Below are positions 3,001 through 15,000 of a stretch of DNA of 64,000 nucleotides, one piece after another (position 1 is the first letter of the stretch; each line of letters opens with the position of its first letter). The position numbers and the translations under genes were made by a program. The stretch is taken from assembly GCA_000165345.1 (NCBI GenBank), contig CM000431.1:224001-288000 (forward strand). Direction: 5' to 3'. Below the pieces are notes generated by a model that saw only the letters and a list, made by a program, of their open reading frames with translations, searched no databases and had not been told where the DNA came from.

Positions 3001-6000
3001 GGTAGAGAAATTTCTATTGGAATTGGAAAGAGTAAATATGGTTACTTTATTCTGAATGAAATTCTTGGATCTTTAATTACTTTGAATGCAAATGGATTAG
3101 ATCTTTCATTTAATAAAGCATCTCCATTATCTAGTCATGATATAGTTTCCAAATTTGAGCTTCAGAAAGGTTTTGTTCTTCCTGCTAATCAGTTATTTAT
3201 TGGTTATGAAACTTGTTCACTTAATGATGATTGTAGTTTGGAAACAACTTCTTGTAATTCTCAAGTAGTAAAAGGTTTATGTCCAAGTCCTAGTAATACT
3301 AGGATATGGACAATAGAAGTTGAGATCTCAAAAACTAATATAAATAATGGTACTTGGGGTGAAAGTCTAGTAATGGATGAACTAATGAATATTTACTTTT
3401 TAAGTAGTAGCTCAGAAATTCTCTATAATGTTTTATTCTTTGAGAATAGAGTAGTTATTGAAGATGCTGATACTCAAGTTACATGTTCTGGAGCATATCC
3501 AGGAGGAGTATCAATATCATATGGAGAAAAGTTTATATGGTCTTTTGGAGTAAATGAAAATAGTAGAATGATTTACTTTAATTCTGCTCCAAAAGATAAC
3601 CCTAATAAGCTTAATACAATCTGTTCAATGCCTTATATGGGTAAAAGATCACAAATCACAACAGTTTATCCACTTGGTTATGCTCCTTCAAAGGCTTTAT
3701 TTACTCAAAAGAAGGATGGACTTCCTACTGGTGGGTTTGAAACAACTTCTATACCAAATAATGGTTTTTATTTCCCAGATAAAAATGATGATACTGGAAT
3801 TTTTGAGCCTCAAAATAAATATGGACAATCATATGAAGAATTTCCACTTGGATTAAAACCAGCTCCAATTGATGGAGATGAGAGTAATACACCTCCAGGT
3901 TATCATTATAATACAACAACTGGCCAATTTGAGAAGAATGAAGATCATTCAGATCCTGATGAAATTAATCCATTCCAACCAACTCATATTGTTGATGGTA
4001 TTTCAGAATGTAATCTTTATTTATTCTCAACTTGTAATGGTACTTCTGCTAAGATTATGCCAGAAGATGCCACGTTTAATGAAGGTTGGACATTATTTGT
4101 GATCTTAAGTACCGGTGTTCCAGAATATGGAGATAATTCTAATAATATTGCTTTTAATTACAAATATAATTTTGTTAAATCAGATTCAACAAAAATTGAT
4201 AATGTAGTTTTATCTCTTTCATTTACTAATAGTACAGTAACTTTCAAGAATGAAAAAACCAGTACTGAAAGTGTGGTAGGATCACCACAATGTGGTCCAT
4301 ATTGTTCAACTTATCCAAAAGGTTATTTTGCTTTCTGGCTAACTTATGATTCAGCTACAAGTAAGTACATTATTTCAGTTGAGAATAATACCAAGAAATT
4401 GGTAGAAATTGAAGCTGAAATAACTGGCTCCGATGATGATCCAATATTTAATAAGATCACTCCCATGATAGATGGAAATAGTGGAGCTGGAGTTGAAATT
4501 TCTAAGACTTTCAGTGTTTGGCATCTATTTAACAAGAAAATAATTAATAATGTGGTTGCCACTACTACTACTACATCAACAACTTCCACAACAACAGAAC
4601 AACCATGGCATGAAATAGAGCTGGAGGAATGTCCTTTAGAATTCAAGAAACCATGTAAAGGCCATAATGCAATTATTAAAGATTCTCAATTTAATAAAGG
4701 AAACCTAATTTGGATTAGTATGAAAACAGTAAAATCTACTCCAGAAATAGAATTAGCTCCAAATAAGTATTGGCATGGATTTTCCTTTTACAATAAACAA
4801 AATGAGAAGGTATTATCTATACTGTTTAATGAGACTCATTTACTTTTGGAGGATAAAGAATCAGGAATGGATTTCACTTCAAGGTACACAAATTCTTCAC
4901 TCAATTATGTTGGTGAAACTATTACAATAGGTCTTGGATGGAGTAGACTTGGACTCTTTTTAATTAATGAAAATAAGGATAGTTTTATTGAAGTTAAGAA
5001 TAATTTGGATTATACATTTGTAAAAATAGTTCATGATTCTACTCAAAAGTCAAGTTCAAATTACTATTTGGAGGAGAACTTCTTATATCCTAATATCTTT
5101 CTCTTTAAAGGATATGAAACTTGTGGTTTATATGAAGAATGTTCAACTTCTCCAGTAAATTGTTATTCTCAAGTATTAACAGAAATATGTCCAAAGAAAG
5201 TTCCTGGTATGTATTGGACATTTGAGAATATTATTCATGAAACAAATGTAAATAATGGAACATGGGGAAGTGAATTTATATTAGATGGACTTTTAAATGT
5301 ATACTTAATTAATGATGGGGATTCAGATATTGCAACTATTTACTTCTTTAATAATAGAATGGTTTTATTAGATTCAAAGAATAAGGTTGCATGTTCTGGA
5401 CCTTATCCAAATAATCATATTATTAGTGTTTCAGATAAAATAAAATGGTCTATTGGATTTGGAAAGAACTATCTCTTGTATTTAAATGTTTATGATCTTA
5501 ATAATAATAATAAAGAATATTCAGTTTGTACTATTCAATATGGATCTGGATTCTTCAATATTGAGTATGTATATCCACTTGGATATGCTCCTTCAATGTC
5601 TAAATTTAACCAATATAAAGATGGATTCCCTAATGGAGGTTATGAATCAACTTCTGATCCTACTAATAGTAATGGAGATTTTTATTATCCAGATAAAGAT
5701 GAAAATACTGGAGAGATTAAGCCTGAGGATAAGTATGGAGTGAGTTATCCATTTTTCCCACCTGGTATTAAACCAGCTCCAATTGATGGAGATGAGAATA
5801 ATACACCTCCAGGTTATCATTATAATACAACAACTGGTCAATTTGAAAAGGATGAGGATAATACAAATCTTGATGAAATTAATCCATTCCAGCCAAATCA
5901 TATTGTTGATGGTATTTCAGAATGTGAACTTTACTTATTCTCAACATGTAATGGTACTTCTGCTAAGATTATGCCAGAAGATGCCACGTTTAATGAAGGT

Positions 6001-12000: not shown

Positions 12001-15000
12001 CCTTATTGTTCAACTTATCCAAAAGGTTATTTTGCTTTCTGGTTAACTTATGATTCGATTACAAATAAGTACATTATTTCAGTTGAGAATAATACCAAGA
12101 AATTAGTAGAAATTGAGGCTGATATTACTAGTGATTCAGTATTTAATAAGATTATCCCAGTAATAGACACTAATGGAGGAGCAGGAGTTGACATTTCAAA
12201 GACTTTCAGTATTTGGCAATTGACAAATATTAAAGAAATTCCAATTGATACCGCTACTACCACTACTACAACAACAACAACAACAACTTCTACAACAACA
12301 ACAACAACAACAACAACAACAACAACTACTACTACTACTACTACTACTACAAGTACAACTTCCACAACAACAGAAAGACCATGGTATGAAATAGAATTGG
12401 ATGAATGTCCTTTAGAATTAAATAAACCATGTAGAGGAATTAATGGAAAATTAGATAAACCGTTTAATCATGGTAATTTATTATGGATTAATGGAACTTT
12501 AGGAAAAGATATTAATGGGAGATTATTATTAGATGATACAAATTTGATGGGATATGATATAATGAATGATAATAAAAAAATCATGACTTTATTATTAAAT
12601 GAAACATTTATTGGAGTTTATGATTTAACAAAAGATCAAGAATATTATTCATATTATACAAATGAAAGTTTAGCATATAATGGTATGGACTTTAAGATAG
12701 GAATAGGATGGAGTAAATTAGGATTATTTATTTTGAATGAATATTCAAGTAGTTTAATAGAAATTCAAACACATTCAGATTATAAATTTAATAAAGTATT
12801 ATTAAGAGGACCAACAATGGATAAATATGTGAATTATATATTATTAGATAATTTCTTATATCCAAATGGAATATTATATTTAGGATATGATACATGTACA
12901 TTTAATGGAGAATGTAATGTAAAATCTTTAGAATGTAGTTCTCAAGTATTAGAAGGATTATGTTTAAAAAAGTTACCAGGAATTACTTGGAAAATGGAGA
13001 CTATTTTAGCACAAACAAATGTAAATAATGGAACTTGGGGATTCGATTATTCTATTAATGGTTTAATAAATTTATATACATTAAATAATGGAATAGAGGA
13101 TGTATTGGTAATTTATTTCTTTAATAATAGAGTAGCTTTACAAGATTTAATAAATTCAAATTCTTGTTCTGGTCCTTATCCTGAGAATTCTCAAGTCAAT
13201 GTTGGTGATTTAATCAAATGGTCAATAGGAATAGATTCTTTAATGAATTTATATTTAAATATATTAGATGATAATGTAACAGGAAAGAATTATACTGTTT
13301 GTTATATAAAGAATTTGAATCAATTTGGTGGTGGATTTAAATATTTATCTCCATTAGGTTATAGACCAAATTATTCAAGATTTATTCAAGAAATATCACC
13401 AAAATTCCAAGATGGTGGTTATGAATCAACATCTAAACCTGATAATGGTTATTATTTCCCAGAAAAAGATGTAAATACTGGACAATATAATCCTGATGAT
13501 AAATATGGTGAAAATAGTTATCCATTTTTCCCACCAGGAGTTCAACCAGCTCCAATTGATGGAGATGAGAATAATACACCTCCAAATTATCATTATAATA
13601 CAACAACTGGCCAATTTGAGAAGAATGAAGATCATCCAAATCCTGATGAAATTAATCCATTCCAACCAAATCATATTGTTGATGGTATTTCAGAATGTGA
13701 TCTTTACTTATTCTCAACTTGTAATGCAACATCTACTAAATTTATGCCAGATGGTACTATATTTAAACAAGGTTGGACATTATTTGTAATGATTAATACA
13801 GGAGTTCCAGATTATGATCCAAATAATGTAAATAATAATTATAATTATAGATATGAATTTATTAGTAGTACTAATAGTAATACTGGTGGTGGTACATTAT
13901 CAGATAAATTAATATTATCATTGGAATATAATAATGAAACAGTTACATTTAGGAATGAAATAACAGGTGAGGAAGATGTTGTAGGTTCTCCACAATGTGG
14001 TCCATACTGTTCAACTTATCCAAAAGGTTATTTTGCTTTTTGGTTAACTTATGATTCAAAATATAATTACTTTATTATATCAGTCAATAGTAATAATGAT
14101 TATTTAACATCAATTTCAGCTGATAATACTGATATGATTTTTAATAAGATTATTCCAAGAGGAAATAACGTTAATAATAGTTATAATATTTGGCATTTAA
14201 ATAGTCAGAATAGGTTGCCTGTTTCAATAGCTACTACTACTACTACCACAACGACTACTACAACTACGACGACGACTACTACGACAACAACGACAACTAC
14301 TACCACTACTACTACCACTACAACAACGACTACTACTACTACTACTACCACAACTAGTACTACTACCACTACTACAACTACTACCAGCACTACTACGACG
14401 ACGACTACTACGACAACAACGACAACTACTACCACTACGACTACTACAACTACCACCACAACAACTACTACGACAACTACTACTACCACAACCACTACTA
14501 CGACAACGACAACAACCACCACAACAACAACAACTACTACTACTACCACTACAACTACAACAACTACAACAACTACAACCACTACGACTACCACTACTAC
14601 AACAACTACTACTACCACCACTACTACGACAACGACAACAACCACCACTACAACAACAACTACTACTACAACCACCACTACTACAACAACAACTACTACC
14701 ACTACTACTACAACAACAACTACTACTACTACTACTACTACGACAACAACAACTACCACTACTACCACAACAACAACAACAACAACTACTACTACCACTA
14801 CTACTACTACAACCACCACAACAACTACTACGACAACAACAACTACCACCACTACTACAACCACAACCACTACGACTACTACAACCACCACAACTACTAC
14901 AACCACTACTACTACTACCACAACAACAACTACTACTACTACAACTACGACGACGACTACCACTACAACTACTACAACTACTACAACTACGACAACGACA

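Follow-up and report, generated by a model that had tools for sequence, protein, structure and literature searches.

Why do the repeated modules of a giant Cryptosporidium gene stay nearly identical along one part of each repeat, while another part of the same repeats has diverged to about half identity? The gene occupies one end of a 64-kb stretch of AT-rich DNA (contig CM000431.1, positions 224,001 to 288,000; GC ~30%), hereafter called the window, and all coordinates refer to its 64,000 nucleotides (nt). From its sequence, we identify the giant open reading frame (ORF) of this window as part of cgd3_720, a mucin gene of C. parvum; the name follows from a poly-threonine (poly-Thr) run of exactly 308 residues, near-identity to C. 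parvum, and published data on the locus. Identity to the C. parvum IOWA-ATCC assembly CP044420.1 was 99.986% over 21 kb (20389-41647, comprising modules 11-14 and the downstream genes). The answer we favour is that ectopic gene conversion very probably homogenises a proline-rich (Pro-rich) linker, the adjoining A domain, and the junction to the C domain, the C domains themselves being old, position-specific, and conserved.

Divergence of the A and C segments among the modules

With SPQCGP, NGTWG, and poly-Thr as anchors, the encoded protein was resolved into 14 modules of ~620-670 amino acids (aa) each, followed by a unique C-terminal tail. Each unit of 1.9 kb encodes, in this order, a Pro-rich linker (signature …GGYESTS…YPFFPPGIKPAPIDGDENNTPPGYHYNTTTGQFEKNEDHPNPDEINPFQP…), a cysteine (Cys)-containing A domain (signature …GISECDLYLFSTCN…SPQCGPYCSTYPKGYFAFWL…IWQLTN…), a poly-Thr tract, and a C domain of ~335 aa. 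The motif SPQCGPYCSTYPKGYF was unchanged in 14 of 14 modules.

The 14 modules were aligned by codon and compared by sliding-window identity, a GENECONV-like permutation test, the pairwise homoplasy index (PHI), neighbour-joining (NJ) trees, and GC content at third codon positions (GC3). Among modules 3-8, the A segments showed 82.5% nt identity with a proportion of synonymous differences (pS) of 0.28, and their core, formed by the linker and the start of A, reached 91.3% with a pS of 0.15; the C segments of the same modules were 56.7% identical, with a saturated pS of 0.55. For modules 3, 4, 5, and 7, the identities were 91.8% in A versus 57.7% in C. Synonymous divergence of the A paralogues was thus 2-4x below that of C in raw pS, and far lower after correction for saturation. 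Equal synonymous divergence (dS) of A and C after proper alignment, which the preliminary description of this DNA had named as an outcome that would contradict conversion, was not found (pS 0.15-0.28 versus 0.55). In modules 1 and 12-14, the A segments were 53% identical (pS 0.62) and the C segments 49% (pS 0.61); since A is as diverged as C in these outer modules, it is not intrinsically slow to evolve.

Along the modules, identity climbed from ~55-70% to 90-100% over the linker, the A domain, the poly-Thr tract, and the first C codons. Within the A segment, it was observed that the best-matching partner module switched every 50-150 nt, and 24 of 55 module pairs contained matching runs at p<=0.0005 in the permutation test. 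PHI gave p<0.001 for A, and p=0.23 and p=0.85 for the two halves of C. The longest exact strings shared between the A segments of modules 2-9 and 11 measured 40-124 nt (20-44 nt in pairs with module 10), and those between C segments had a median of 14 nt and a maximum of 27 nt. A perfect run of 117 nt, taken alone, is unremarkable against a background of ~94% identity; the feature that is not due to chance is the jump from ~57% to ~91-100% identity, synonymous sites included.

Homogenised blocks, delimited at >=85% identity (Table 1), begin in the Pro-rich linker, upstream of the folded A domain (at 5617 in module 4), and continue across poly-Thr and a further ~45-60 nt, i.e. the first 15-20 codons, into C. 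The preliminary description had placed near-identical A domains and junctions between 3840 and 13800; this near-identity was confirmed, with the blocks starting already in the linker and extending to modules 2 and 9-11, where the last converted tract ends at ~20967. Its view that the outer modules diverge progressively everywhere is only roughly right, given the tracts carried by modules 2, 9, 10, and 11; modules 1, 13, and 14 were unconverted, and module 12 was similar only around the SPQCGPYCSTYP motif. The 117-nt identity reported between modules 3 and 4 proved exact and was bounded by an immediate mismatch on either side. The copy in module 5, said to share about 79 nt, does share the start of the tract; the count is 80 nt, and there are 3 mismatches over the full 117 nt. 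Around SPQCGP, where four differences, all synonymous, had been counted in ~165 nt, comparison of 4256-4420 with 6170-6334 gave five, of which four were synonymous and the fifth, GAA/GAT at 4419 (Glu/Asp), lay at the tract edge. Positions 9496-9646 of module 6 matched 11437-11587 of module 7 with zero mismatches at polymorphic sites, the longest identical string being 124 nt.

Table 1. Features of cgd3_720 in the window, with domains and tracts numbered by module.
Feature	Position (nt)	Strand	Details
cgd3_720, 3′ part	1-29157	+	9,718 codons + stop; single open frame, open at the 5′ edge of the window
Module 2 tracts	2005-2187, 2362-2505	+	up to 98% identity to modules 5/7, 94% to module 6
Module 3 block	3838-4524 and junction 4555-4662	+	linker, A sandwich, poly-Thr, first C3 codons
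Module 3 117-nt tract	4033-4149	+	equals 5947-6063; first 80 nt equal 7879-7958 (module 5)
C3	4609-5619	+	49% aa identity to C4; 98% to C. hominis orthologue
Module 4 block (987 nt)	5617-6603	+	successive best partners: modules 7, 6, 3, 7, 5
Module 4 copy of 117-nt tract	5947-6063	+	exact identity to module 3
C4	6550-7563	+	orthologues: 99% C. hominis, 71% C. canis
Module 5 block	7654-8508	+	core 100% to module 8; 3′ end 99% to module 7
C5	8455-9468	+	modelled; orthologues: 98% C. hominis, 74% C. canis
Module 6 tracts	9469-9900, 9994-10134	+	diverged stretch between the two
C6	10369-11406	+	C. hominis orthologue 99%
Module 7 block (1,035 nt)	11404-12438	+	through poly-Thr into C7
C7	12385-13395	+	C. 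ubiquitum orthologue 84%
Module 8 tracts	13492-13818, 13963-14070	+	13584-13706 matches module 9 at 16680-16802
Module 8 long poly-Thr (mucin) tract	14233-15312	+	41 + 9 + 308 Thr
Module 9 tracts	16657-17004, 17056-17157	+	core 99% to module 8; further on 96% to module 10
Module 10 short tracts	18736-19044	+	96% to module 9
Module 11 tracts	20452-20691, 20842-20967	+	91-93% to modules 5, 8, 9

Positional orthology of C domains and species-wise clustering of A segments

Orthologous DNA was examined from C. hominis, C. ubiquitum (including LRBP01000007.1), C. canis, and C. serpentis (JBHPOL010000050.1); these orthologues are short-read draft contigs that end or are gapped in the repeats, and they lack most of C. 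canis and the central modules of C. ubiquitum. An NJ tree of all C domains showed strict 1:1 positional orthology in C. hominis, C. ubiquitum, and C. canis. Orthologous C domains shared 96-99% aa identity with C. hominis, 72-84% with C. ubiquitum, and 62-74% with C. canis, compared with at most 49% between paralogues. The ratio of non-synonymous to synonymous divergence (dN/dS) of C was 0.13 for C. parvum versus C. hominis (over 2,031 codons with 74 synonymous and 40 non-synonymous changes) and 0.17 when C. parvum was compared with C. ubiquitum; neither value exceeds the orthologous ratio of A. The preliminary description had rightly seen C3 and C4 as about half identical at the protein level (49%), and had taken the C domains to diversify as variable or antigenic surfaces; the latter is not supported by the 1:1 orthology and the low dN/dS. 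Judged by their orthologues, the C domains are old, individually conserved paralogues, whose divergence comes from age and not from speed.

For the A segments, the comparison centred on the core (75 codons; for example 3850-4075 and 7700-7925). Paralogues within a species were 100% (C. hominis A3/A4), 99% (C. ubiquitum A3/A4), 98% (C. ubiquitum A4/A9), 98% (C. canis A3/A5), and 93% (C. canis A4/A5) identical, and in the first four of these pairs the paralogue was closer than any orthologue. The NJ tree of the core grouped the central modules by species and the outer modules by position; modules 1, 10, and 12-14 group by position, not by species. Core dS had a median of 0.18 within C. parvum; it rose to 0.40 in the comparison with C. 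ubiquitum and was saturated with C. canis. Positional dS of C. parvum versus C. ubiquitum was 0.77 for A and 0.75 for C.

A haplotype of ~100 nt, 'SDLENPSRP' (…NSDLENPSRPTH…), is common to A3 and A4 of C. hominis and matches C. ubiquitum A2 at the nt level. This haplotype is absent from the whole window, where its best match has 14 mismatches in 54 nt; at the same site, the C. parvum counterparts agree with other modules, A3 with A2 and A4 with A6. We infer that at least one replacement postdates the split of C. parvum and C. hominis, the C. hominis side being read from short-read contigs. Orthologous dS between these two species is about 0.065, and non-synonymous divergence (dN) is highest in A3 and A4, the segments touched by conversion (0.048-0.055, compared with 0.008 in C).

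The draft genomes are interrupted at characteristic places. An NN gap in C. hominis (L001 9704-9705, corresponding to window 4109-4169) lies inside the 117-nt identical tract, and C. hominis contig ends correspond to window positions 7694, 8425, and 11552, inside homogenised A/linker segments or poly-Thr. In the independent drafts of both C. hominis and C. ubiquitum, the breaks fall exactly in the homogenised segments, as would be expected of true near-identical repeats.

The arrays also differ in size. On the C. ubiquitum contig LRBP01000007.1 (~18,600-22,413), C1, C2, and the C7 orthologue (84%) are followed by an A8-like domain, which may be compared with window 2701-13395. C3-C6 are absent from this contig, although C. 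canis, a more distant species, has C4 and C5; the missing domains would be explained either by unequal recombination at A/poly-Thr that deleted four modules or by an assembly collapse. In the gastric species C. serpentis, the syntenic orthologue (JBHPOL010000050.1, 10001-20566) measures 3,521 aa; it comprises two A domains, three C domains that score well, and three degenerate N-terminal C-like domains. This ~7x shorter array would mean either that the array grew in the intestinal clade or that modules were lost in the gastric one.

Gene conversion weighed against other explanations

The locus displays the marks of intragenic concerted evolution, namely clustering by species, lowered pS in the tracts, and a mosaic recombination signal. 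That gene-conversion tracts are limited to A and junction, as the preliminary description had proposed, and to the linker is supported by the dS contrast, the switching of partners, PHI, the species-wise clustering, and the probable post-split replacement. The array is old: the common ancestor of C. parvum, C. ubiquitum, and C. canis already had every C where it is found today. The array would have expanded before the intestinal species diverged; that it did expand at some time follows from C. serpentis, which has two A-bearing modules only. The C domains have since that ancestor evolved under ordinary purifying selection. Between misaligned modules, non-reciprocal ectopic recombination would copy ~50 to 1,000 nt from one module to another, touching only linker, A, and junction, and chiefly modules 3-9. 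The molecular mechanism would be meiotic or mitotic double-strand-break repair. Cryptosporidium is not known to possess canonical end-joining and hence depends on homologous repair.

Such a process would reinforce itself: similar segments would retain the perfect runs of 40-124 nt that prime homologous repair, and C segments would fall below usable homology and no longer serve as templates, the 27 nt or less shared among C paralogues probably being too little for recombination. This homology threshold may be the reason why C escapes; alternatively or additionally, conversion in C would be purged by selection, each C being position-specific. The unstable poly-Thr microsatellites beside the tracts might, as a speculation, be linked to conversion. 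A functional need for uniform A domains may also exist. We consider it unlikely that selection, and not just homology, keeps homogenisation to linker and A because interchangeable, identical A lectin units are needed centrally; these could, for example, provide multivalent or homotypic binding in a late-stage or oocyst-associated matrix, with the C pairs acting as position-specific binding units.

Several points weigh against homogenisation by conversion as set out here. Conversion is deduced from sequence patterns, and no event has been observed directly; GC3 was equal in A and C, with no signature of GC-biased conversion. Core synonymous divergence between C. parvum and C. ubiquitum (median 0.40) compares with 0.96 for the outer A cores and 0.75 for the C domains, and this approximate halving hints at nucleotide-level constraint or at slowing related to conversion. 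Short-read drafts can mis-thread repeats of ~0.7-1 kb, the assignment of a variant to a module being less certain than its existence, and the window assembly could be slightly over-homogenised by short-read polishing. The present data do not distinguish a homology limit from selection acting against conversion in C.

Very strong constraint on A and linker, at the protein level plus the RNA or DNA level, could in principle have kept paralogues from ever diverging, with no conversion at all. The invariance of SPQCGPYCSTYPKGYF in all 14 modules would suit such constraint, as would a core that, between C. parvum and C. ubiquitum, has diverged at synonymous sites about half as much as other segments. 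We nevertheless find it highly improbable: the outer A segments are 53% identical with saturated pS, positional dS between species is equal in A and C, partners are incongruent along the segment with a significant PHI, and species-specific variants common to paralogues, together with the species-wise clustering, are incompatible with it. The outer modules, where unconverted A is as diverged as C, also speak against a contrast produced by fast C domains under diversifying or antigenic selection instead of by homogenised A. Although C paralogues are merely 35-50% identical and cgd3_720, which encodes a secreted mucin, is among the polymorphic loci in C. hominis (PMC4407392), three other species have a 1:1 orthologue of every C, at 62-99% identity, and the orthologous dN/dS values of 0.13 and 0.17, as whole-domain averages, do not exceed those of A; an explanation by diversifying C is extremely unlikely.

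Positional orthology bears equally on a recent tandem duplication of whole modules, after which C would have diverged rapidly; such a history might have been suggested by the loose clade of C3, C4, C5, and C7 and by the C. serpentis orthologue with its 2 A-bearing modules. C paralogue dS is saturated, however, and because a separate orthologue of each C is found in C. ubiquitum or C. canis, the C duplications predate the splits of these species; we assign recent duplication next to no probability and regard it as ruled out by C-domain orthology, ancient expansion alone remaining. That reads of different modules were merged during assembly or polishing, creating false identity, would be in keeping with repeats of 0.7-1 kb that are hard for short reads and at which the drafts break. 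This artefact is nevertheless very unlikely, as the window matches the long-read C. parvum assembly at 99.986% (over 20389-41647 only, the central modules lying outside the comparison), paralogue-specific differences in A1, A2, A4, and A6 recur at 96-100% in independent C. hominis contigs, C. ubiquitum and C. canis show the same pattern with different species-specific variants, and tract boundaries differ pair by pair, unlike in a collapse. Across three C. parvum assemblies, the 3′ 21 kb contained ordinary scattered single-nucleotide polymorphisms (SNPs), which are uninformative on the central modules.

Concerted evolution by conversion or unequal crossing-over is familiar from ribosomal DNA arrays, polyubiquitin genes, and repeat-containing surface proteins. 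As in the tandem repeats that have been described (for example PMC10457151 and PMC3595265), the paralogues of cgd3_720 are closer than orthologues, with low synonymous divergence and patchy tracts. Unlike those arrays, cgd3_720 is homogenised over about one third of each 1.9-kb unit and in the central modules only, and the rest of each unit has remained strictly orthologous by position through long periods of evolution. The pattern also resembles segment-restricted conversion between duplicated genes (reviewed in PMC3924837 and PMC3924838), which persists where similarity is high, halts where divergence or selection blocks it, and leaves segments with mosaic histories; here, however, donors and acceptors are domains within a single ORF of ~35 kb.

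Predicted folds, gene context, and implications

The C domain is predicted to consist of two galectin-like β-sandwiches. The AlphaFold model of C5 (predicted local distance difference test (pLDDT) 80) contained two jelly-roll β-sandwiches, and the best Foldseek matches of the C model were Toxascaris galectin, galectin-8, and the galectin domain of an adenovirus fibre (E 3e-9 to 1e-7), with a single-domain template modelling (TM) score of about 0.6 for galectins; it also matched LG/LNS pairs in the PDB. The A model (pLDDT 55) showed a disordered linker and then a β-sandwich with weak galectin matches. Because the confidence of this model was too low, the fold assignment of A rests on hhalign to C, in which A residues 95-275 were homologous to the first C sandwich (probability 94%, E 1.5e-7); A is predicted to be a linker plus a third sandwich homologous to the first of C. 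With its two predicted jelly-roll β-sandwiches, C would resemble tandem-repeat galectins and LG/LNS (concanavalin-A-like) pairs. Unlike galectins, to which sequence identity is ~10%, the cgd3_720 domains are Cys-rich and extracellular, and their lectin likeness is a predicted one.

A Pfam scan of A, C, and tail (E<=1) found no family, a sub-threshold HmuY match in the tail being judged due to chance. The C-domain profile retrieved just 12 proteins among 1.84 billion representatives, and a protein search with the A segment alone returned nothing, though the same search missed the known C. hominis orthologue. In the second C sandwich, the motif N-V-N-N-G-T-W-G-x-E is nearly invariant (window 7189-7215 and the 13 other NGTWG anchors). 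By eye only, NNGTWGxE resembles the galectin sugar-binding signature N…N-W-G-x-E-x-R; in this by-eye reading no H-x-N-x-R partner was noticed. A reading of the labels A and C as non-ribosomal peptide synthetase (NRPS) domains was rejected, as no AMP-binding or Condensation match was found in Pfam and the folds are all-β and lectin-like; NRPS A/C domains have only the letters in common with those of cgd3_720.

Poly-Thr is present in every module and ranges from 5 to more than 350 residues; in module 8, its codons are ACT (160), ACA (100), ACC (65), and ACG (33). With long Thr-rich tracts in a secreted protein, cgd3_720 is mucin-like. Two ORFs of ~370 aa on the minus strand (14205-15339) are the reversed ACN (Thr) repeat and not genes, and a GC skew of -0.585 at 14-16 kb arises from the same poly-Thr tract. 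Mucin-like glycoproteins of Cryptosporidium include gp900, gp40/15, and the Muc family (PMC9111948, PMC9973360, PMC12407990); cgd3_720 differs from these in its ~11,700 aa, its triple β-sandwich modules, its late transcript (48 h), and the lack of a Pfam family. No cgd3_720 transcript was detected at 2-24 h in culture, and the maximum was at 48 h (PMC3305300). Such late timing would point to the sexual or oocyst stages. The signal peptide lies upstream of the window, according to annotation quoted in PMC3305300; also upstream, a region of ~1,900 aa seen in orthologues comprises three degenerate C-like domains and no A domain.

The giant protein has been called at 11,696 aa (CP044420.1, IOWA-ATCC) and at 11,621 aa in a second C. 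parvum assembly. This 75-aa difference is located upstream of the compared 3′ 8.8 kb and plausibly sits in poly-Thr tracts, which would be consistent with the published insertion/deletion (INDEL) hot spot in cgd3_720 (chromosome 3, 240-245 kb; PMC9317183). The downstream gene at 30389-31648 has the same encoded product in two chromosome-level C. parvum assemblies. Genes at 30389-64000 encode an α/β-hydrolase, a ribosomal L7Ae protein, a Ulp1-type C48 peptidase, RRP40, and others; synteny downstream of the mucin gene is kept in C. ubiquitum and not in C. serpentis.

Segment-restricted conversion and concerted evolution of intragenic repeats are already well known, and cgd3_720 adds a clear, if ordinary, example of partial concerted evolution and not of antigenic diversification. 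In our literature search, no earlier account was found of the module and fold architecture of cgd3_720 or of conversion within it. With the present analysis, the largest mucin gene of this important cause of diarrhoea, until now annotated only as a 'very large probable mucin', gains a map of its domains and an account of its evolution, and the suggestion of antigenically diversifying C domains is removed. The near-identical segments account for the breaks of draft assemblies in the gene. Caution is advised with short-read SNP, INDEL, and 'hypervariable locus' calls in cgd3_720, because reads mapped to the wrong paralogue look like a point-mutation hot spot, as does real conversion; published variant 'hot spots' may in part be paralogous mis-mapping, and the dN of A3/A4 between C. 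parvum and C. hominis, 5-6x that of C, is an example. The predicted lectin-like fold offers a testable functional lead. If selection does maintain uniform A units, conversion would also rapidly generate variants with multiple substitutions between C. parvum and C. hominis; it would then underlie the 'hypervariable' calls and could influence host-related phenotypes.

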